A stretch of 64,000 nt of DNA from Deltaproteobacteria bacterium (GTDB lineage Bacteria > Myxococcota > Myxococcia > Myxococcales > JAHFDP01), in NCBI GenBank assembly GCA_023248955.1, contig JAHFDP010000011.1, positions 6,056 to 70,055 of the forward strand, written 5' to 3'. Made by a program: the position numbers and the translations under genes. The notes beneath the pieces are model-generated. The model ran no database searches. It worked only from the letters and a program-made list of their open reading frames with translations, and was not told the DNA's origin. Shown here piece by piece: positions 4,778 through 20,859 of this stretch. The first letter of the stretch is position 1, and every line of letters starts with the position of its first letter.

Positions 4778-4854
4778 TGGCAGGGCAGGAGGGACTCGAA
4801 CCCCCAACAAGCGGTTTTGGAGACCGCCGCTCTACCAATTGGAGCTACTGCCCT
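4778..4854 (-). tRNA. trnW: tRNA-Trp (anticodon CCA), CCA end encoded
   Basis: Reverse complement AGGGCAGTAGCTCCAATTGGTAGAGCGGCGGTCTCCAAAACCGCTTGTTGGGGGTTCGAGTCCCTCCTGCCCTGCCA folds as a cloverleaf with a CT-CCA-AA anticodon loop. Canonical position between rpmG and secE. Confidence 0.95.
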
Positions 4855-4993
4855 ATGCTACGGCGAACGATCCTGGCCCATCTGCGTCGTTGGACCTTGC
4901 GGTCCGGTCCTCAGCGTACCTGATGTACGCCTCCGGTCCGGTCCTCGGCCCGCTTAGCAGCTGAGCCACGCTCGCTCGCCTCGCGATCATTTT

Positions 4994-5143
4994 TTATTTA
5001 CCTTCTTTGTGGCTCGTGTGCTTGCGGCACTTACGGCAGTATTTCGACAGTTCGAGTTTGTCGGTCATGGTGCGCTTGTTCTTCGTGGTGCCGTAGTTGC
5101 GCATCTTGCAGACCGAGCATTCGAGCGAAATGATTGTTCTCAT
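4994..5143 (-). CDS. rpmG: 50S ribosomal protein L33
   Basis: Not in the ORF track (49 aa). Minus strand reads [49 protein letters not shown]-stop. Zn-ribbon form of L33 in the canonical tuf-rpmG position. Confidence 0.93.
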
Positions 5144-5164
5144 AAAAACCTCGTTTCAACAATT

Positions 5165-5228
5165 CACCACGGAAAAAACGGAAACACGGAAAATGATTTT
5201 ACTTCCGTGCTTCCGTGTTTCCGTGGTG
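5165..5228. terminator. Long imperfect hairpin between tuf and rpmG
   Basis: CACCACGGAAAAAACGGAAACACGGAA ... TTCCGTGCTTCCGTGTTTCCGTGGTG. A T-run follows on the plus strand only, so it may act as an attenuator or processing site for the minus-strand operon, or as a terminator of antisense transcription. Confidence 0.4.
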
Positions 5229-5242
5229 CAATCTCTTTTTTG

Positions 5243-6448
<1,206 letters not shown>

Positions 6449-6514
6449 GTCTAATCTCCTGTGCGCTTGCAGTGAATGAAAAAGGCTCTTTACTAAACTT
6501 AGAAAAATTTTTGA

Positions 6515-6587
<73 letters not shown>

Positions 6588-6603
6588 GACGTCCTCGACA
6601 GCG

Positions 6604-6679
6604 TGGAGCGGGAGACGGGATTCGAACCCGCGACATTCAGCTTGGAAGGCTGAAGCTCTACCAGCTGAGCTACTCCCGC
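6604..6679 (-). tRNA. trnG: tRNA-Gly (anticodon UCC), CCA encoded
   Basis: Reverse complement GCGGGAGTAGCTCAGCTGGTAGAGCTTCAGCCTTCCAAGCTGAATGTCGCGGGTTCGAATCCCGTCTCCCGCTCCA. Anticodon loop CT-TCC-AA. Confidence 0.93.
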
Positions 6680-6690
6680 ATGGCCTTAAA

Positions 6691-6773
6691 TGGAGGGGGA
6701 AGGATTCGAACCTTCGAAGGCGTGAGCCGGCAGATTTACAGTCTGCTCCCTTTGGCCGCTTGGGTACCCCTCC
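6691..6773 (-). tRNA. trnY: tRNA-Tyr (anticodon GUA), long variable arm
   Basis: Reverse complement GGAGGGGTACCCAAGCGGCCAAAGGGAGCAGACTGTAAATCTGCCGGCTCACGCCTTCGAAGGTTCGAATCCTTCCCCCTCCA. Confidence 0.93.
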
Positions 6774-6834
6774 GGAGAATCCTCCGCGAGTTTGGTCACC
6801 TAAGGTCTTAAAATTCGTTAGCGCTCCTAGCTCA

Positions 6835-6907
6835 AGCTGGCGGTGGGACTCGAACCCGCGACCTGCTGATTACAAATCAGCTGCTCTACCAGCTGAGCTA
6901 CGCCAGC
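6835..6907 (-). tRNA. trnT: tRNA-Thr (anticodon UGU)
   Basis: Reverse complement GCTGGCGTAGCTCAGCTGGTAGAGCAGCTGATTTGTAATCAGCAGGTCGCGGGTTCGAGTCCCACCGCCAGCT. One C-A mismatch in the T stem. First gene of the Thr-Tyr-Gly-Thr-tuf array. Confidence 0.9.
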
Positions 6908-9803: not shown

Positions 9804-9848
9804 GCTAGGATGTCATTTTTTCGACGTTTGACATTTTTCGGAGGGGAC

Positions 9849-12071
9849 ATGCGATCGCATTTGGCCATCTTCTGCTCGCTCGTTGGCACGCTGGCGATCG
9901 CCGCCGTTCCCTCGCAAATCGATCAGCAGGGACGCATCCTCAAGAGCGACGGAACTCCCGAGACCGGCGCGCTGAGCGCAACCTTCGCGATCTACGACTC
10001 AGCCTCCGGAGGAGCGGCGCTCTGGACGGAGGCCCACGCGCTCCCACTCGACGGCGGTGGCTACTATTCGGTTTCCCTCGGCGCGGTGACACCCTTTCCG
10101 AACACGCTGTTCGATGGCCGCACGCTCTATCTCGGCATCAAACTCTCGAGCGAGCAGGAGATGACGCCGCGCGAGCCGATCCTCAGCGCGCCTTACGCCA
10201 TGGTGGCCGGGCAAGCGCACGACGTGATCGGCGACATCCATCCCGCGAGCATCACCGTCAATGGCAAGACCATCGTCGACAGCCAGGGCCGAATCGTGTT
10301 GGACGCCGGCTGCACCACCGGACAGATCCTCGCGTGGGACGGGAGCAATTTCGCCTGCGTGTCGCCGTCGGCCAGCTCGGGAGGAACGGTCACGAGCGTC
10401 ACGGCTGGCGCGGGACTGGCGGGCGGCACGTTCACCTCCGCTGGTACACTGAGTATCGCTACCGGCGGCGTCACCAACGCAATGCTGCAAAACAGCGGCG
10501 TCACCGTCACTCCCGGCGCGGGCCTCACCGGCGGCGGCGCGGTTTCGCTGGGCGGATCGACAAAGATTTCGCTGCGCACCGACTGTTCGGGCGGACAGCT
10601 CCTCGCTTGGAGCGGCACCGACTGGGCCTGCACCTCGCCTGCCGCGAGCTCGGGAGGAACGGTCACCAGCGTCATTGCTGGCGCAGGCCTCTCTGGCGGC
10701 ACCATTAACTCCACCGGTACACTGAGTATTGCATCCGGTGGCGTCACCAACGCCATGCTGCAAAACAGCAGCGTCACCGTCACGGCTGGGACCGGACTGT
10801 CCGGCGGCGGAACTGTTGCGTTGGGCGGAACCGTGACACTCGCGGCGACCGCGGTTGCTCCCTCAGGCACGGTGCTCGACCTGGAGTTCGAGGACAACAC
10901 CGGTTTGCCAGCGACGTTCCTCGACTCTTCGGGGCTGGGCAACACCGCTACCGGAACGAGCGGCTTTGCGCCGGGTTCGAGCGGGCACTCCGGCAAAGGC
11001 GTGAACTTTTCCGGAGGCGTCTTGACCATCGCCGGGCCCACGAAAATTCCGGACAGCGCGCAGGTCTCGGTGGAGGCCTGGATCAATCCGACGACGGTGA
11101 ACACCACGAAAACCATTTTTCAAAAGGGCACCACCGCGAGCGCCAACGCGCACTCGTACACCTTGCGTCTGATCAATCAGAATGCGTCGTTCACGGTTTC
11201 GGCAGGAATAGGCACCGGAACCGACTGCACGGCGACGGCCTCGGATTCGTCCGTTCCAGTGACAACTTGGTCGAATGTGTCGGGTTGGTACGACGGTCAA
11301 TATGCGGTCGTTGCGGTGAATGGAACGGTCCGCGCGACTGCGGCCTGCTCCAACGGTTCGGTGCTTGGACTCGGCCCGGTCCTGGCAACGCCGACGGGAG
11401 CCTTTAGCATCGGCGCGACCACGACGGGGACGCAGACCTTCGCGGGAACCATCGACGAAGTGCGCGTTCGAAATACCGCCGTTTCCGCGGTCCGCGTTCA
11501 ATCGGTCTATACTCAATGGGGCGTCGGAACTTGCACCAATGGCGCGCAGACGCTCAACAGCGGATTCGCCTTCGGTGCCCACTACACCCACAACCCAAGC
11601 GGAGAACCGAGTTGCCTCGCAGCAGGCGCGCCCGGACCGGTGAAGCCGAATCCGAGTTCTTATGGCGATATCAAATACGGGATGTCCGTGCAGGGAACTT
11701 CGCCGTCCACCGACATTCCCAGCTCCGTCGTCAATGGCGTGAGCACGGTCGTCATCGTCAAGAATACGCGCCTTAAATGTGCCAGCTGCGGCACACCAAA
11801 GAGCAGCTGTTTTCGAATCGACGGCACGCAAACTTGCCCTGCTGGATTCACGTCAGCCTATGCCGGGTTTCTCTTTGGCGGCTATTACGTCCCCAGCTCG
11901 AATCCAGGCCATAACGAGCCGGTATGCATCGACGGCTTTAATTATGATGGCAGCGCCGCCAACTTGACCGACAACGGCGCTTATGTCTATCCAACCTCCG
12001 TCGAAAGCGGGGGTGGAACTGGGGTAACCGCCGGAACCTTTCTTCAATGCGCTGTTTGTTGCGCCAATTAA
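9849..12071 (+). CDS. Large secreted protein: tail-fibre-like N-domain, two 90-aa repeats, LamG-like domain, Cys-rich twofold C-terminal domain
   Basis: ATG 9849 is preceded by GGAGGGG. Signal peptide MRSHLAIFCSLVGTLAIAA. The text QIDQQGRILKSDGTPETGALSATFAIYDSASGGAALWTEAH is typical of bacterial tail-fibre-like proteins. LamG-like text is LEFEDNTG...VSVEAWINPT...GTIDEVRVRN. The ORF track start at 9810 is also possible. Confidence 0.85.
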   Translation: MRSHLAIFCSLVGTLAIAAVPSQIDQQGRILKSDGTPETGALSATFAIYDSASGGAALWTEAHALPLDGGGYYSVSLGAVTPFPNTLFDGRTLYLGIKLSSEQEMTPREPILSAPYAMVAGQAHDVIGDIHPASITVNGKTIVDSQGRIVLDAGCTTGQILAWDGSNFACVSPSASSGGTVTSVTAGAGLAGGTFTSAGTLSIATGGVTNAMLQNSGVTVTPGAGLTGGGAVSLGGSTKISLRTDCSGGQLLAWSGTDWACTSPAASSGGTVTSVIAGAGLSGGTINSTGTLSIASGGVTNAMLQNSSVTVTAGTGLSGGGTVALGGTVTLAATAVAPSGTVLDLEFEDNTGLPATFLDSSGLGNTATGTSGFAPGSSGHSGKGVNFSGGVLTIAGPTKIPDSAQVSVEAWINPTTVNTTKTIFQKGTTASANAHSYTLRLINQNASFTVSAGIGTGTDCTATASDSSVPVTTWSNVSGWYDGQYAVVAVNGTVRATAACSNGSVLGLGPVLATPTGAFSIGATTTGTQTFAGTIDEVRVRNTAVSAVRVQSVYTQWGVGTCTNGAQTLNSGFAFGAHYTHNPSGEPSCLAAGAPGPVKPNPSSYGDIKYGMSVQGTSPSTDIPSSVVNGVSTVVIVKNTRLKCASCGTPKSSCFRIDGTQTCPAGFTSAYAGFLFGGYYVPSSNPGHNEPVCIDGFNYDGSAANLTDNGAYVYPTSVESGGGTGVTAGTFLQCAVCCAN
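10318..10857 (+). repeat. Two tandem 270-nt (90-aa) repeats inside the 9849..12071 CDS
   Basis: GQILAWDGSNFACVSPSASSGGTVTSVTAGAGLAGGTFTSAGTLSIATGGVTNAMLQNSGVTVTPGAGLTGGG... versus GQLLAWSGTDWACTSPAASSGGTVTSVIAGAGLSGGTINSTGTLSIASGGVTNAMLQNSSVTVTAGTGLSGGG... The DNA is also clearly similar. Confidence 0.9.
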
Positions 12072-12092: not shown

Positions 12093-12515
12093 TTAGCGTT
12101 GAAGCTCGATGCCCATCGCCTTTCCAAGCGAGGCGACCCGGTCATCGAAGGTGGCCAGCGTAAGCGGTCGTTGCACGATCGCTTGCAGCTGAAGGACCGC
12201 GCCGATGTGGACGGCATCGAGCGAGCGGCACTGCGCCATCCGCTCGTCCTGCCGCACGCGCGAGGCGATGCTCGAAAGCTCGTCGTAGAGCGAGAAACCA
12301 AGCAGGTCCGCGTCGAAGCGATCGAGCGCGGCGTTGAGAAGCTTGCGATTGCGGCGATCGCCGCCTAGCACGCGTCGCAGCACCACGGGAACTTCGATCG
12401 CCAAAAGCCAGGAGGAGAGCTTCGGTGTCTTGAGCCCAAGCCAGGCCTGTGCGTCCGCGTGTCGCGGCTGGTTTAGGTAGAGCTCCAACAAAACGCTGGA
12501 GTCGAAATAGATCAC
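12093..12515 (-). CDS. vapC: PIN-domain toxin (VapC-like)
   Basis: MIYFDSSVLLELYL...LLAIEVPVVL...CRSLDAVHIGAVL...LATFDDRV. The acidic PIN residues are in the expected order. 4-nt ATGA overlap with the upstream antitoxin. Confidence 0.85.
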   Translation of the reverse strand: MIYFDSSVLLELYLNQPRHADAQAWLGLKTPKLSSWLLAIEVPVVLRRVLGGDRRNRKLLNAALDRFDADLLGFSLYDELSSIASRVRQDERMAQCRSLDAVHIGAVLQLQAIVQRPLTLATFDDRVASLGKAMGIELQR

Positions 12516-12823
12516 GGCAAGTTCCGGTCCGCGCGGGTGGCACGAAGCGCGGCGGCCAGATCGATTTTCCCGTGGGGCTTGGGCAGCGGATCCGCCGTGG
12601 CGCTGCGCGGCTCGCCCTTGGCCATTCGCAATTTGCCCGTGCGGCCGAGCCGGGCGATCGCTTCTTCCTCTGATTCGCCGATGCGGCCAACGTGCTGCGG
12701 CGGTGCCGTGAGCTGCGCGACGACCGTGCCGTGGTCCGTAACCAGAACCGTTTCTCCGTCGAGGACCATTCGAAGATATTCGCTCAAACTGTTTTTGAGC
12801 TCTCGGACGCCGGTTGTTCGCAT
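12512..12823 (-). CDS. Antitoxin, Phd/YefM-like (VapB role)
   Basis: Internal ATG at 12823 gives MRTTGVRELKNSLSEYLRMVLDGETVLVTDHGTVVAQLTAPP... Typical Phd/YefM N-terminus. The longer ORF start at 13072 has no support. Confidence 0.8.
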   Translation of the reverse strand: MRTTGVRELKNSLSEYLRMVLDGETVLVTDHGTVVAQLTAPPQHVGRIGESEEEAIARLGRTGKLRMAKGEPRSATADPLPKPHGKIDLAAALRATRADRNLP

Positions 12824-13052
12824 GACGCTATTGTAGCTCCCGTGGCTACATTTTTGCAAACTCTGATCGTATCGCGGACTAAGGCACCCATCAGCCAGGC
12901 GGTGGCATACCCACGCTCCACCTGGAGTGAACACGCGCAGTCCACTGTTTCGTGGGCGACACCAAACCTCGATCCGCAGCCGCCGCGTGCACATAAATGC
13001 GATGCCGCTCACGTGACGACGTTCATGACCCGACGAATTTCTGGCCCAAACC

Positions 13053-14753
13053 TTGCTGCCCTCCGGGCCCATGTTCCCTCCGCATTTCGTCGCTTTTGTC
13101 CTCTGTCACACGCTCTTCGTCACCGCCGCTGAGCCACGGTCTCGTGAGAGCAGCAAGGCCAAGCCATCGGACGAGCGCAGCATCGAGGAGATCGCGCACG
13201 AGCAGCGCACGCATCCCGAAATTCCGCACGGCACGGCGCTCGATAACAAAAATCCGTTCGAGCTCAAGAAGGGTCCGCTCGCCAACAACTCGACCACCGA
13301 GATCGGCGCCGGCGAAAACAAAAACGATCCCCACGCCATATTGACGCCAGAGCAGCGCCAGCGCGCGATGGAGCTGAGCGAGCGCATCAGCACCGTGGCG
13401 CGGACGCTGGTGCGCGATGCCAGCATGGCCGTCACGCCCGGCGATTGGTGGGCCTACTGGTTCGCTGAAGGGTCTAACCGACACAAGATCACCTACCCCA
13501 TCCACGACATGCTGGGGCACAGCGACAAGTATGCGATGGGCGTGATCGGGCACGAGATCTCGCACGCGCTCCACTCGCGCATTCCCAGCAAGGTCGACAA
13601 CAACGCGTTCCATTTTCTCTGGAACGCCATTGAAGATATTCGCATCAACAAGATCATCAGCGAGCGTTTCGCGGGCATGCCAGCCATGTTGCGAGAAGCT
13701 TATTCTGAATGGATTCCGAAGCACGACAAAGTTAGCGCCGAGGGAAAGATGATCCGCTCGGAGCTGTTTGCGTACGGCTTCATTTACGAATGGGCCACGA
13801 AAGGAAAGACGCTTTCTGGCATCACCGACCCGGAGGTCATCGCTGCGATCGACGAGGCACGGCCCTACGTCCTAGAAACCACGCGGCTTCCGCCGGGCGT
13901 CGATTTGCGCTTCGACAGCATGAACAAAGAGGAGATCGATTTCGAAGCGCTGCGGTCGTTCGAAGTGATTCGCGATCAGATTTGGCCGATCTACCAGCGG
14001 CTGCTCGAGAAGGACATGAACGATCCTTCGACGAAGGACAAAGCGGATCAGCAGCAGCAGGGCGAAGGCGACGGAAAGCCGGGAGAAGGCAAGCCCGGTG
14101 AAGGCAAGCCTGGCGAAGGAAAACCCGGTAAGGGCGAAAAAGGTGGAAAGCCCGGAGAACCGAGCGAAGGCAACTTCGACGAGAGCGGCAATATCGCGAG
14201 CAATCAGGTTCCGCGCGATCCGTTGAAGGGCAAGACCGGCATTCCGTCACTCGACGAAACGCGCGAAGCGCTCGACAAGCTCTTCAAGAAAGCTGCGGAC
14301 GCTCTTGGCGGAAAAGTGCAGTCGGAAGCCGATAAGCAAGTGGAGGAGGCAGGCAAGACCGGCGCAAAGGCCCCGAGAAAAAAGGGCAGCAAAGGCGAGG
14401 GCGAAGACAACATTTCGACCAGCGGGAGCCAGGTGGAGCTCGATTACGCGGGCGATCCGAAATACGGCAAACTCGAGGACCAGGTCAAAGCGCTCGAGCA
14501 GAAGCTCCGCGATCAGCGCAATGCCACGCGGAGTGGATCGCCCTACCAGGCAATCTGCGACAAGCAGAAGAAACAAAAAGACGCGCTCGTCACGGAGATC
14601 GCCAACGCCATCGAGCGGGACGATCTCCCCGAGTTGGTCGGCCCGCTGCCGCGCTTTTCGCGAGTGCCGCCTTGCTCGTTTTCGGAGCAAGGAGCGACGC
14701 CGCACCCGTGGTGCCAACACCCTCGAAGAAGACGGCCGCCGCGCAAAAGCTAG
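13053..14753 (+). CDS. HExxH metallopeptidase-like domain protein with K/E/G-rich repeat linker; last ~35 codons look out of frame
   Basis: GVIGHEISHALHSRIPSKVDNNAFHFLWNAIEDIRINK resembles the putative metallopeptidase domain that accompanies VWA/MoxR systems (DUF2201_N type, from memory). It also has a hydrophobic N-terminus FVAFVLCHTLFVTAA, a GEGKP repeat and a coiled-coil-like K/E-rich stretch. The tail PLPRFSRVPPCSFSEQGATPHPWCQHPRRRRPPRKS looks non-native. Confidence 0.55.
   Translation: MLPSGPMFPPHFVAFVLCHTLFVTAAEPRSRESSKAKPSDERSIEEIAHEQRTHPEIPHGTALDNKNPFELKKGPLANNSTTEIGAGENKNDPHAILTPEQRQRAMELSERISTVARTLVRDASMAVTPGDWWAYWFAEGSNRHKITYPIHDMLGHSDKYAMGVIGHEISHALHSRIPSKVDNNAFHFLWNAIEDIRINKIISERFAGMPAMLREAYSEWIPKHDKVSAEGKMIRSELFAYGFIYEWATKGKTLSGITDPEVIAAIDEARPYVLETTRLPPGVDLRFDSMNKEEIDFEALRSFEVIRDQIWPIYQRLLEKDMNDPSTKDKADQQQQGEGDGKPGEGKPGEGKPGEGKPGKGEKGGKPGEPSEGNFDESGNIASNQVPRDPLKGKTGIPSLDETREALDKLFKKAADALGGKVQSEADKQVEEAGKTGAKAPRKKGSKGEGEDNISTSGSQVELDYAGDPKYGKLEDQVKALEQKLRDQRNATRSGSPYQAICDKQKKQKDALVTEIANAIERDDLPELVGPLPRFSRVPPCSFSEQGATPHPWCQHPRRRRPPRKS
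14061..14163 (+). repeat. 15-nt period tandem repeat encoding (GEGKP)n
   Basis: GEGDGKPGEGKPGEGKPGEGKPGKGEKGGKPGEP. The period is five residues, not a collagen G-X-Y triplet. Confidence 0.85.
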
Positions 14754-14992
14754 ACCACGCGAAGGAGACACTCGCGCTCTCGGTCATCGCTCGTATGATC
14801 GAGCTCGGCGGAACCTTCACGAAGGAACTCACCGTCGACTGGTTACGCAATTCGATAGCGCCCGCGTTTACCGGAGACGACTACATCCTGCCGATGGCCC
14901 GGATGGCGCGCGCGAGCGGCGTCGCGTTCGACACAATCCATTTGACGCTCGCGAATGGGACGACGATTCCGCTCAACACCAGAATGAAGTGA
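14672..14992 (+). pseudogene. Frame-2 segment of the disrupted AAA_5 locus (hydrophobic segment plus degenerate AAA module start)
   Basis: The frame is open from about 14582 and reads ...AAALFASAALLVFGARSDAAPVVPTPSKK...DDYILPMARMARASGVAFDTIHLTLANGTTIPL. There is no credible start for the hydrophobic segment. It joins naturally to frame 0 upstream and frame 1 downstream. Confidence 0.4.
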
Positions 14993-15771
14993 TCACGCCC
15001 GCGGCGAGTTTCCGTCTGCTGGCGACCGGAAACGGATCCGCTTACGCCGGTCGTGGAAAACTTTCCGCCGCGCAGCGATCGCGCTGGACCACGGTCTTCT
15101 GTCAGCCGCTCGGTGAAAAAGATCTCACCACGATCATGAAGAAAAAGTTCGGCGACACGATTCCCGATTCAGAGCTCGCGAAATTAATCACCACGCATCT
15201 TGCGCTGGTACAAGCGGCGGATGCGGGCGACGTCGGCAGGAGCCTCGGACGGCTGGCCTACTCGGTACGAAATCTTCTGCGCGTCGGACAACGATTCGTT
15301 CGGCACCAGGGCGGCGCTCTTTCCGACGACGCGTTGATGCGCCGCGAGATCGAGGAGATCTACCGAGGAGGACTCTTCGAGCCGGATGAAGTCAAAACGG
15401 TCGACGACATCCTCCAACTATCCGCGCCCTATGACGGTAGCGATTTCTACGAACATCTAGAATTCACGGAGACCGCCGACACCTTCACGCTGGGTGACGT
15501 CACGCTGCGCAAAGTCAACACCGGCCACGCGGAGATCCCCAACGACAAGGCGAAGCAAATCCTCACCAAGCGTACCAAGAAGGCGCTCTACCAACTCATG
15601 AAGGCGATCGAGAACGGCGAAAATCCCGCTCTGCTCGGCGAACGTGCGTCGGGAAAAACTTCGCTCGTAAAATTTCTCGCGCATCTCGCGGGTCAGCCTT
15701 ACTACCGACAGATGCTCGGTGAAGGCACCGACGCGATGGATCTGATCGGCGGCTACGACGATCAGGGTTAG
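14988..15771 (+). pseudogene. AAA_5 (MoxR/midasin-like) ATPase segment: end of module 1, linker, Walker A of module 2; ends at an in-frame TAG
   Basis: VITPAASFRLLATGNGSAYAGRGKLSAAQRSRW... then LGERASGKTSLVKFLAHLAGQPYYRQMLGEGTDAMDLIGGYDDQG-TAG. The GTG at 14988 overlaps the frame-2 stop (GTGA), so an independent start cannot be excluded. Confidence 0.5.
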
Positions 15772-15780
15772 TCCGACGGC

Positions 15781-16386
15781 ATGCTGCTTCGTGCGGCTCG
15801 TCCCGAGAACGCGCCGGGCATCGCGCTCTTCGACGAATACAACATGGCCAGCTCCGCCGTGCTCGAGCGTTTCAATCCGGTGCTCGACGATGAGCGCACA
15901 CTGGTACTCGTCGAAAAGGAAGGCGAGGCGATTCGGCTGCATCCCGACTTCGTACCCATCGTGGCCTTCAATCCACCGACCGCGCGTTATCCGGGTCGCC
16001 GCAAGCTTTCGCCCGCGTCTTACAATCGTCATACGTTGATATACATTCCGGATCTCTCGGCGATCGATGAGCAGAAGGAGATTCTCTCTGGGCGTGCCGC
16101 GGAAATGGGCGTGCCAACAGCCGTCGCCGAGGCGTTAGTGGATCTGCATCATTGGCTGATCGCCAAATATGCTGACGGCACGCTCGGCCAATCGCTGTCG
16201 GACGACGAGAAGCCGGATCTCTCGATTCGCCAACTCATGAAGTCGCTGGAGACCGTGCACGAATTTGGCGAAGAGGACGGCTACGGACTCGCGTTCCTGC
16301 ACGCGGTCGAATCGAAGTACGCGGGCACGCCCGACCTCGATGACAACGAAGCGATTCTGCAGCACGCGGACGAGATGTCTCGCTGA
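15781..16386 (+). pseudogene. AAA_5 ATPase segment: Walker B to lid of module 2 (in frame with 14988..15771 across the TAG)
   Basis: (TAG)SDGMLLRAARPENAPGIALFDEYNMASSAVLERFNPVLDDERTLVLVEKEGEAIRLHPDFVPIVAFNPPTARYPGRRKLSPASYNRH. This is a classical AAA_5 Walker B / sensor 1 / Arg region. Confidence 0.6.
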
Positions 16387-16391
16387 ATTCC

Positions 16392-16431
16392 CTCACCCAC
16401 CCTGACCCTCCCCCGTCAAGGGGGAGGGGAC
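16392..16431. repeat. REP family 2 hairpin (CACCCTGACCCTCCCCC-N-GGGGGAGGGG)
   Basis: CTCACCCACCCTGACCCTCCCCCGTCAAGGGGGAGGGGAC, near-identical to 45803..45845. It lies between convergent genes and supplies the last codons and the stop of the permease gene. Confidence 0.8.
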
Positions 16432-18436
16432 ATCTTGGGGCGACTACCGCGCAGAAGCCACAACCCGGCGGAGGCACACAGGAGCGCGGCGCCGATCACG
16501 CCCGGCAATTCGAGCGCCGCTTTAACGGCGGGCACGCGCTCGGCAATCACCGCGAGCCCGTTGTTCGCGAAGTGCGCGATGGCGCCGACGAGCAGACTTC
16601 CCGACTCCAGCGTCGCAAAACCAAGCGCCAGTCCGAGAATCGCCGTCGGTAAGATGTGGTAAGGCGAGAGGTGCAAGAGACCAAACGCCAGCGCACTTCC
16701 GCCGATTGCCAATGCACGTGAACCGGTTCCCGAAAGGCCGGACATCACCACGCCTCGGAAGCAGATCTCTTCGCACACCGCCGGCAAGCCGGCGATGAGC
16801 AACACCGCCACGGGCAATGGATAGGCCAATGCCGCGCCGCCGACGGTTTTGGTGAGCTCATCGAAAAAGGGCTGCGCACCGGGAAGGAACGTAGCCTCGG
16901 CGGAAGTGACGAGCGCGCCGATCGCAAAGATGCCGGACGCCAGCAGCAACGTGCCCGCAAGCGCACGACGCGTCGGCAATCGGAGCGAAAGCGTGGACGC
17001 AAATTCGGCGCCGGAAAATTTCACCCAGAGCAGCGCCGGCACGAGGAGCAGCGCCACCTGCACCGCCGCGGTGCCACCTGCAAAACCGAGCTTCGCGGGA
17101 TCGGCCCACAGCGATCCGTAATAGACGAGCACCAAGAGCACGGTGGTGAAGAGCACGGCGCTGCCCGGACGCAAGGTGGCGCTGCTCGTTGCGCGTCTAC
17201 TGAAAATATCGCGCCACGGACGCTCACCGCCGAGGAGAACCTGCTCGCTCTCGAACACGCGCGCCGCGAAGAGCACCGCCATCGCCGCATAGGCGCTGCT
17301 GGCGACGAGCACCGTCATGTACATCACAGTGGTCATTTCGCCGACAAGGAGATCGCGCACCAAGAGCGCCAAATTGAGAATGGGCACCAGCGCCAAAGCG
17401 GCGGTCAGCTTCACGCCGGGAAGCGTGGCGGCGAAACCGGGCACGAGCAGCACCAGCATGAGCGGCGTGATGTAGTTTTGCGCTTCGCGAAAGCTGCGCG
17501 CGAAGATCGACAACGCGAGAAGCAGCGCCGCCAGCAGAAAAGCCGCGGGAAGCAGCGCCGCGAAGATGGCCACAAACGCTTTGGGACCCAACGTGAACGC
17601 CATCATCTTGCCATCGACCGCGGCTATCTGCCGCGAGAGCGCCAGGCCCATGGCGACGAGGTTGGCCACCGCGCTGGTGATGGCCACCAGCACCACCGCC
17701 AGATATTTGCCGGCCACGATTTCGATCGGCTTCACCGGTGCGCAGAGCAGCGTCTGCAACGTGCCGCGTTCCTTCTCGCCGGCGGTGGTGTCGATGGCCG
17801 GATAGACCGCGCCAAGCATCACCATGAGCAGGAGAATCATTGGCAACACGCGCCCCGCAAAGTCGCCGCCCTTCTGCTCTTTGCTGGCGACGTCCTTGAT
17901 GGTGAGCGTCAGCGGGCGATCGAAATGCGCGGGCAATCCGTGGTGCATCAAACGCAGTTTCAGCGCCGCATCGGAAACTTCCTCGAGCACATCGGAGACG
18001 CGATGTCGCGCGGCCCCGGAGTGCTCGCTGCTCAAGAGGGGATTGTAATAGAGCTCGATCGCCGCGCTCCCCTCGCCCTCGAACGCCGCCGCCGCGCCCT
18101 CGGGGGCCGCGAGCACCACGTCCGCTGTTTCATGTTCGATGAGCGAGCGCGCTTCCGCCTCCGGACCGGCCGGGGGCGTGGAGCGCCGCTCAACAATCTT
18201 GGCTGAAAGTTTCTGCTCCAAGGCCTGCGTGACCGCGGTGGGGAGCGTTCCCCAGATGGCGATAGCCGGCTTGACATTTTGATTCTTGGCGTTGAGCGCA
18301 GCCGTCACCTGCCCGAAGCCGAGCATGAGGATGGGCTGCACCAACGCGGGCAAGGCGATCATCGCAAAGAGCGTGCGCTTATCGCGCAGCGTCTCGGTCA
18401 GCTCCTTGCGGAAGATGGCCCAAACCGCACGCGGCC

Positions 18437-18440
<4 letters not shown>
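16416..18440 (-). CDS. ABC-2 type (NatB-like) permease fused to a C-terminal CPBP (CAAX-type) intramembrane protease domain
   Basis: A GTG at 18440 (GTGA overlap with the ATPase stop) gives VRPRAVWAIFRKELTETLRDKRTLFAMIALP... with a large extracytoplasmic loop and multiple TMs. The C-terminal part has LPAVCEEICFRGVV...AFGLLHL...AIAHFANN, the CPBP motifs. Confidence 0.8.
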
Positions 18441-19168
<728 letters not shown>

Positions 19169-19254
19169 GGACGAGGACGGTAACCCGCGTCCGTCGCGCG
19201 AACAAGAAATGGGGCGCGAGTACGGCGCGACCGAGATCGTGCGGGCAAATTTGA

Positions 19255-20859
<1,605 letters not shown>

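Follow-up and report, generated by a model that had tools for sequence, protein, structure and literature searches.

A Probable Recently Inactivated Copy of a Two-Gene MoxR/Midasin-Class AAA+ and VWA Module in a Myxococcales Genome

In a 64,000-nucleotide stretch of contig JAHFDP010000011.1 from a Deltaproteobacteria bacterium of the order Myxococcales (the window, from here on), positions 13053 to 16386 of the forward strand carry sensible protein text that changes frame as it proceeds, from a hydrophobic N-terminus through a domain with an HExxH motif and a charged linker into ATPase sequence of the AAA_5 type. What did this locus once encode, and what, if anything, does it still make? An earlier reading based on the letters and their open reading frames (ORFs), here called the sequence-only reading, had described a decaying accessory locus next to a toxin-antitoxin pair, perhaps a former single membrane-spanning protein, that it could assign to no described system. 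Comparison with an intact paralog in the same genome, with related metagenomic loci, and with family and structure databases leads us to conclude that the locus is very probably a recently inactivated copy of a rare two-gene module, in which a MoxR/midasin-class AAA+ ATPase is paired with a protein bearing a VWA domain.

The Locus and Its Intact Paralog

The source genome is a metagenome-assembled genome (MAG) of 116 contigs, and a six-frame search of this assembly identified a second, intact and diverged copy of the locus on contig C106. Its open frames of 778 and 1796 aa carry the HExxH motif, a VWA domain (DKSGS), and two AAA_5 modules, and of its two genes, A and B, the stop codon of A is followed after two bases by the GTG start of B. 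Gene A (756 aa) encodes a hydrophobic N-terminus, the HExxH domain, a charged linker, and a C-terminal VWA domain whose MIDAS signature is complete (VIDKSGSM...GNTND...FLTDGG; VWA_2 E 2.7e-8). The product of gene B (1680 aa) opens with a short N-terminus of moderate hydrophobicity. It continues with ∼1050 aa of helical repeats that gave no Pfam match and include two 'GDDY[IV]LP[IL]ARLAR' repeat domains, and it ends in two AAA_5 modules (E 3.5e-33, 115 bits) separated by a putative midasin-type lid. Four segments of this paralog were matched in the window, and no other segment of A or B was found in the window or elsewhere in the genome:

Paralog A 1-547: window 13074-14654, frame 0, 49% identity
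Paralog B ∼11-50: window 14660-14770, frame 2, local alignment
Paralog B 625-691: window 14774-14977, frame 2, 46% identity
Paralog B 1203-1680: window 14959-16383, frame 1, 71% identity

With the remnants of the two genes named A' and B' and the two ATPase modules AAA-1 and AAA-2, the locus is laid out as follows:

13053-14753, +, A' ORF, frame 0, 566 codons, uninterrupted; truncated HExxH and linker gene without VWA
13083-13130, +, signal-peptide-like hydrophobic N-terminus of A', HFVAFVLCHTLFVTAA (Kyte-Doolittle mean 2.13)
13308-14012, +, HExxH domain; zincin-like core predicted
13551-13565, +, HEISH, inside GVIGHEISHALH
13620-13652, +, WNAIEDIRINK helix of the HExxH domain of A'
14013-14594, +, charged low-complexity linker rich in K/E/G/D, including (GEGKP)n
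14595-14650, +, conserved pre-VWA helix EIANAIERDDLPEL (alignment with homologs), the span including deletion joint 1 behind the helix
∼14640-14650, +, deletion joint 1, frame 0 to frame 2; VWA end of A and first codons of B lost
∼14645-14992, +, B' piece 1, frame 2, ending in stop TGA 14990-14992 (tblastn and local alignments)
14774-14977, +, single GDDYILPMARMAR repeat domain, matching paralog B 625-691; joined by an in-frame internal deletion
∼14972-14980, +, deletion joint 3, frame 2 to frame 1; ∼500 codons lost (paralog B ∼692-1209)
∼14977-15768, +, B' piece 2, frame 1; C-terminal stub of AAA-1, lid, and N-terminal half of AAA-2
From 14977, +, C-terminal stub of AAA-1, beginning at HQNEVITP, with GRGKLSAAQRSRW at 15049-15087 (motif coordinates)
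∼15121-15378, +, midasin-type lid (weak Pfam AAA_lid_7 match)
15637-15663, +, Walker A of AAA-2, GERASGKTS (motif scan)
15769-15771, +, in-frame TAG between Walker A and Walker B of AAA-2
15772-16386, +, B' piece 3; C-terminal half of AAA-2 and C-terminal helical domain, natural stop 16384-16386
15820-15849, +, Walker B of AAA-2, IALFDEYNMA (motif scan)
15949-16032, +, sensor/Arg region of AAA-2 (motif scan)

The ORF list and translations bear out the observation of protein text in three frames (frame 0 at 13053-14753, frame 2 at ∼14645-14992, and frame 1 at ∼14977-16386). A' is homologous to paralog A as far as ∼14654 (tblastn E 5e-155), and its final ∼33 codons are an out-of-frame read-through into former gene B sequence. 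The hydrophobic N-terminus is real on the Kyte-Doolittle scale and is kept in paralog A (MPPFLACLVFCCTLLLGAA), while it is absent in the other Myxococcota homologs. GVIGHEISHALH and WNAIEDIRINK, the features by which the domain had been recognized, are the best-conserved positions of a genuine domain family. The K/E/G-rich linker was also correctly described, its (GEGKP)n run being encoded by a 15-nt tandem repeat (3.9 copies, 14076-14133); linker length and composition differ strongly between homologs. Pfam returned only a faint CobT match on the HExxH ORF, and the NCBIfam models gave nothing useful on the window pieces.

B' piece 1 begins with the N-terminus of gene B (AAALFASAALLVFGA...), a segment that had been taken for an internal membrane span and that matches residues 11 to 50 of paralog B. 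Of the supposed first, degenerate AAA_5 module, no more than the C-terminal stub of AAA-1 exists; ahead of it, in a different frame, lies an unrelated ∼70-aa 'GDDYILPxARxAR' repeat domain that derives from the N-terminal region of B. The N-terminal half of the AAA text, in piece 2, gave weak AAA_5 and AAA_lid_7 signals only. The motifs ascribed to the second module were all located, and Pfam AAA_5 (PF07728) matches 15772-16383 at E 3.4e-6 (27.6 bits versus a cut-off of 22), yet the TAG parts its Walker A from its Walker B. Motif scanning found only one P-loop in the locus, AAA-1 being without both Walker motifs. As reported before, no VWA/MIDAS partner is present: neither a VWA domain nor a DxSxS motif was found in any frame of 13000-16500 by Pfam and motif scan. 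Its absence is explained: the HExxH protein once ended in this VWA domain, which has been deleted.

Lesions and Relative Age of the Probable Inactivation

The impression of decay holds, since the window copy differs from the intact paralog by three deletions and one nonsense codon. Deletion 1 (∼14640-14650) takes from A its VWA domain and from B its opening codons; deletion 2 (∼14770), which is in frame, takes most of the N-terminal region of B; and deletion 3 (∼14972-14980) takes ∼500 codons, both Walker motifs of AAA-1 among them. The two frame changes occur at large gaps relative to the paralog and are not isolated indels. The TAG is aligned with the Trp of GWSDG in the paralog (GWKDG in other Myxococcota homologs; one midasin module also has W) and is the sole in-frame stop within the 470 surviving C-terminal codons of B. 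Given the three deletions and the nonsense codon, neither an ATPase nor a MIDAS adaptor would be produced from the window copy, which should yield at most a signal-peptide-bearing HExxH-linker protein (A').

In a relative-rate count of private substitutions at outgroup-invariant sites, with other Myxococcota homologs as outgroups, the window copy has 6 and the paralog 9 in the HExxH domain, and the C-terminal 470 aa of B have 15 and 25, respectively. The two copies are ∼70 to 73% identical in DNA. GC content at third codon positions (GC3) is 0.70 to 0.78 in the four coding pieces, compared to 0.73 to 0.80 in the flanking genes, 0.74 to 0.75 in the paralog, and a genome-wide long-ORF median of 0.71, which does not sustain the earlier, by-eye suggestion that codons here end more often in A/T than those of the flanks. 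The total GC of the locus dips to about 0.59 to 0.61, which we attribute to a linker rich in Lys, Glu, and Gly. The lack of excess substitutions, the preserved GC3, and the lone TAG together suggest that the inactivation is recent when set against the time since the two copies diverged, and on that scale the decay of the window copy looks young.

Related Loci in Other Genomes

A search of 5.8 billion protein clusters found only six close proteins, two of them the genome's own, and no homologs were found in 40 genomes of the same order. The contigs of the close proteins, together with a scan of species-representative genomes, provided seven further loci, all metagenomic, of which six are labeled Myxococcales, Myxococcaceae, Archangiaceae, or 'Deltaproteobacteria' and one comes from an unlabeled sequencing run. 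A full-length HExxH-VWA gene is present in all seven, and so is B (complete in L004, L005, L008, L010, and L011; cut by the contig end in L006 and L007). The gene order is B (1585 to 1724 aa), a small gene (117 to 123 aa), and A. The small gene is missing at L011, has no family that we could find, and was absent from the present genome in a profile hidden Markov model search. In total, nine related loci (including the C106 paralog, L004 to L008, L010, and L011) encode the module as two separate proteins, and eight of them have both genes on one contig. An intact single-ORF ortholog of the kind imagined earlier was not found among them; there are two genes instead, and the VWA domain, to be sought on a neighboring gene according to the sequence-only reading, was found on the HExxH protein itself. 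Five full-length homologs (A of L004, L005, and L006; B of L004 and L005) have neither a hydrophobic N-terminus nor an internal hydrophobic span. The notion of one membrane-spanning protein is contradicted on both counts.

Two of these loci show irregularities of their own. At L004 (10001-12493, an Archangiaceae MAG), three ORFs stand in place of a single HExxH-VWA gene, with the breaks within the linker, which there consists of about six 18-aa tandem repeats (GAGGAGETGESEETDGAQ); the breaks could be due either to a slippage-prone repeat or to assembly error. L008 (3172-14583, a Myxococcaceae MAG) reads B, small gene, A, B, and its first B copy shifts frame near 4800. The A-then-B adjacency of the present genome corresponds to the second half of this L008 arrangement.

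The HExxH Domain Family

Alignment of six homologs revealed more than 60 invariant columns in the HExxH domain, and a profile of the domain recovered 583 clusters at E≤1e-3 from 1.84 billion representative proteins. A VWA or CobT_C-type VWA domain lies downstream in 19 of the 19 sampled members (580 to 2229 aa), weakly so in P0134 (CobT_C E 0.026), and no Pfam model covers the HExxH domain in any of these 19. The domain has an AAA_5 ATPase as its partner in the nine close loci that were examined and also in a fusion protein, P0021, which joins two AAA_5 modules, a midasin lid, the HExxH domain, and VWA on one chain. Family hits of 3,000 to 7,500 aa also exist, among them P0086 (4379 aa), named a HEAT-repeat protein by its source; elsewhere in the family the source names are 'hypothetical', 'MoxR-like ATPase', or 'HEAT repeat'. 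Across 151 representatives, the His, Glu, and His of H-E-x-x-H are conserved at 86%, 95%, and 87%, and N..ED.R..N on the next helix at 80 to 96%.

The domain profile matched no PDB sequence. AlphaFold (AF2) models (pLDDT 78 for the full domain and 72 for the core) predict a backing helix and three strands, together with the helix that carries HExxH and a second one bearing the Glu/Asp. Foldseek gave no meaningful match with the full 235-aa domain model; with the 134-aa core, zincins occupied 11 of the 12 top ranks, none of them a significant match (best E 0.08, TM ∼0.4; selecase, abylysin, jannalysin, and BlaR1, followed by ArdC, SPRTN, MMP-11, M1, and M48). A faint match to PF01435 (M48) was also recorded (E 0.15). 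Based on motif and topology, the domain is probably zincin-like, of the gluzincin type, with weak fold evidence.

The sequence-only reading had likened this region to the DUF2201_N-type domain that partners VWA and MoxR proteins. The first half of that comparison is wrong and the second right: PF13203 (DUF2201_N) gave no match at E≤1 with the window protein, at E≤10 with six members, or in a six-frame search of the genome, while the domain does stand N-terminal to VWA in the sampled relatives and belongs to the VWA/MoxR-partnering sort. PF06213 (CobT) weakly matched three of six members (best E 0.011, 15.8 bits versus a cut-off of 26.1) and nothing in the six-frame search of the genome. A remote tie to the CobT N-domain is possible on these sequence matches.

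Affinity of the ATPase

The ATPase text is of the dynein/midasin/MoxR AAA_5 type, as first read, according to both Pfam and the match to midasin. In the PDB comparison, the paralog AAA pair matched midasin at E 4.8e-84, with the best stretch spanning both modules and the lid, and the window remnant (X at the stop) at E 1.1e-72, whereas CbbQ/NorQ reached only 1e-9 to 1e-8 against the paralog pair. By these alignments, midasin is by far the closest solved relative. The lid family AAA_lid_7 (PF17867) was matched weakly in the window (E 0.015) and the paralog (E 0.0099), both under the 22.7-bit cut-off, and just above it in P0021 (23.7 bits). The VWA of paralog A showed no midasin-specific likeness, its best PDB match being a BatA-like VWA (E 1e-4) and midasin not appearing among the PDB matches listed. 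AAA-1 of paralog B (residue ∼1073) reads GPTGSAKT, with Ala where Gly is usual before Lys, and the L004 homolog reads GPTSAGKT; this first module of paralog B may be a weak or regulatory site.

Alternative Explanations

The conclusion that the locus is an inactivated two-gene module has points standing against it. Its joints and TAG rest on a single MAG assembly, and the ancestral length was deduced from the paralog and more distant homologs rather than from a close intact ortholog, which is absent among the 5.8 billion protein clusters and the 40 same-order genomes. The match of the HExxH core fold to zincins is weak (best E 0.08, TM ∼0.4), the full-domain model matched nothing, and the mechanism of the intact machine, considered below, is wholly inferred. 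The most serious competing account would confine the pseudogene to B', with A' alive as a stand-alone, possibly exported HExxH protein or as a partner of the intact B on C106. This is conceivable, although we think it unlikely: the 566-codon ORF is uninterrupted, the hydrophobic N-terminus and every column invariant among homologs (including HExxH and ED.R.N) are kept, and unique substitutions are no more numerous than in the paralog, but very recent inactivation predicts the same pattern. Moreover, a VWA-type C-terminal domain is present in 20 of 20 full-length relatives (19 representatives and paralog A; weak in P0134), the shorter entries P0003 and P0006 are fragments, so that no VWA-less version is shown to be viable, and the ORF ends in ∼33 out-of-frame codons.

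That the real second copy is intact and the deletions and stop arose during metagenome assembly is distinctly improbable. The genome is indeed a 116-contig MAG, the surviving segments look as fully conserved as those of an intact gene, and homologs in two other MAGs are also broken (A of L004 in three parts; one frame change in a B of L008). Such an artefact would nevertheless have to produce three separate kilobase-scale gaps and a point nonsense change within 3.3 kb, at joints without long repeats that could make an assembler skip, and with no isolated small indels away from the joints; the paralog, at ∼70% identity, is too diverged for the copies to have been collapsed. We consider it very improbable that a single membrane-spanning protein once joined an extracytoplasmic HExxH domain to a cytoplasmic AAA_5 motor. 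Two hydrophobic stretches do occur in the expected order, and single-chain AAA_5/HExxH/VWA fusions exist in other phyla (P0021), but in P0021 the ATPase precedes the HExxH domain, the paralog has a stop and a GTG start exactly between the parts, the second stretch is the first 20 residues of B, the B, small gene, A order of other Myxococcota loci rules out such a fusion there, and an internal hydrophobic span occurs in none of the five homologs scanned. Least credible of all is programmed recoding, in which read-through of the TAG and two ribosomal frameshifts would yield a functional protein. The coding signal (GC3 and conservation) does run on across each break; however, the full read-through product would still be without the VWA and the Walker A and B of AAA-1, both present in every intact homolog, and the frame changes coincide with large deletions and not with slippery sites.

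Genomic Neighborhood of the Two Copies

The inactivated module adjoins a type II toxin-antitoxin pair, as had been noticed, whose toxin and upstream antitoxin ORFs overlap at 12512-12515 and are not part of the module:

12093-12515, -, PIN toxin (PF01850 E 5.5e-8)
12512-12823, -, Phd/YefM-type antitoxin (PF02604 E 1.7e-6, 28.1 bits, just under the cut-off of 29.8)

Directly upstream of the pair, window 9810-12071 encodes a 753-aa secreted protein with Laminin_G_3 (E 6e-18). Further out, window 4778-6907 holds a tRNA cluster (Thr-Tyr-Gly-Thr), EF-Tu (5246-6448, -), and tRNA-Trp, an arrangement typical of the conserved tuf-secE-nusG region, so that core genes lie within 6 kb of the accessory stretch. 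A tRNA-Thr(CGU) was detected by ARAGORN at 19291-19366.

The flanks of the paralog (C106:4288-9248 and 17037-20687) encode secreted proteins: a 1118-aa RCC1-repeat protein, two lipoprotein-like ORFs, and a 1158-aa Cys-rich protein that has an HExxH motif of its own (VPHEIAHSIF) and no Pfam match. Elsewhere in the genome, at C14:7891-11820 (-) and C32:60032-63690 (+), four signal-peptide-bearing proteins of 460 to 848 aa consist of tandem ∼130-aa helical repeats (...LALLRxxARAAELG...WPxTxEAAxVLRRVAKAYxLDExKIxFAG...). The 848-aa protein on C14, the one of the four that was scanned, has no Pfam family. The same ∼130-aa repeat occurs in the N-terminal region of the intact gene B, at residues ∼115 to 372.

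Comparison with Known Systems

The view that no described system can be named for this architecture stands: Pfam, NCBIfam, PADLOC, and the literature gave nothing specific, and the parent family is undescribed as far as these sources and the PDB show. Searching the literature for a midasin-like ATPase in bacteria, or for a system that combines HExxH, VWA, and MoxR, returned general MoxR-VWA reviews only. The eukaryotic pre-60S ribosome remodeler midasin (Rea1/Mdn1/MDN1) shares AAA_5-type modules arranged in tandem, here with putative midasin-type lids, a long charged low-complexity linker, and a MIDAS/VWA domain. Midasin, however, carries six AAA modules, a D/E-rich linker, and MIDAS on one chain, whereas here there are two modules per chain, MIDAS is on protein A, and the linker is K/E/G-rich and preceded by a zincin-like HExxH domain. 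Midasin also serves ribosome assembly, while the present module is bacterial and has no ribosome-assembly context.

Among bacterial systems, NorQ/NorD, CbbQ/CbbO, CoxD/CoxE, and RavA/ViaA likewise place an AAA_5/MoxR-clade ATPase gene next to that of a VWA-MIDAS partner, and such MoxR-VWA pairs carry out ATP-driven remodeling or metal insertion (PMC13036017, PMC7159879). NorQ/CbbQ-type ATPases are single modules of ∼270 to 500 aa that match here at E 1e-9 to 1e-7 only; the NorD/CbbO/CoxE/ViaA-type partners are without an HExxH domain, and no nor, cbb, or cox client gene lies near this module. CobT has the same layout of N-domain, charged linker, and VWA; the VWA domains of the wider family match CobT_C (PF11775), with E values as low as 5e-19 among scanned members, and one fusion protein weakly matches CobS. 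TIGR01651, however, gives 25 to 37 bits versus 759, far under its cut-off, the ATPase here is two-module and very large, and there is no CobN or cobalamin context here or among the neighbor genes. DUF2201 proteins are built on this plan too, with an HExxH domain preceding a VWA-type one and a MoxR-class ATPase as partner, but PF13203 does not match here.

Minigluzincins and M48/M56 zincins (selecase, projannalysin, BlaR1) have HExxH followed ∼22 residues on, in the next helix, by a conserved Glu/Asp; the predicted core topology is alike, yet the ∼120-aa helical C-terminal half of the present domain has no counterpart there. In the vWA-MoxR-VMAP ternary conflict systems (Kaur et al. 2020, PMC7159879), the third component is VMAP, accompanied by effectors, whereas the third gene of the related loci encodes the 117- to 123-aa protein without a family; bpMoxR matches the paralog at E 3.6e-4, under the cut-off. 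Of the PADLOC defense models, none matched A, and those that matched B did so only weakly, through the P-loop.

Proposed Mechanism and Implications

By analogy with MoxR-VWA pairs and midasin (PMC7159879, PMC13036017), the intact module probably works as follows. Six AAA modules, supplied by three B chains, would form a ring comparable to that of MoxR hexamers and to the one that midasin builds from a single chain. Through its VWA/MIDAS domain, A would bind an acidic residue of a client or dock on the ring, and the flexible linker would pass the ATP-driven movement of the ring on to the client as a pull. The zincin-like domain would cleave the client or handle a metal ion for it. In this genome, both subunits have signal-peptide-like N-termini, and the N-terminal repeat of B recurs in several secreted tandem-repeat proteins; on these grounds, the machine might sit tethered to a membrane or be exported from the cytoplasm. 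The parent module may be a split bacterial counterpart of midasin, with a trimer of B forming the six-module ring that pulls, via a tethered MIDAS, a client processed by the zincin domain, possibly at the membrane or outside the cytoplasm, and possibly representing the prokaryotic stock nearest to the midasin AAA modules. We offer this split-midasin picture as a speculation that is rather unlikely to hold.

As a pseudogene, the remnant is minor in itself, and it shows that seeming "frameshifts" can be the deletion joints of two former genes. The parent module is the more noteworthy: it pairs a MoxR/midasin-class ATPase with a VWA adaptor, and this adaptor has a conserved HExxH domain without a Pfam, NCBIfam, or PDB counterpart. 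This domain is found in ∼580 protein clusters across bacteria, at times fused into giant proteins, and the module's ATPase is much nearer to eukaryotic midasin than to any characterized bacterial MoxR protein. The presence of an intact copy and a copy that appears freshly broken in one genome would provide a natural comparison of what the cell can spare.

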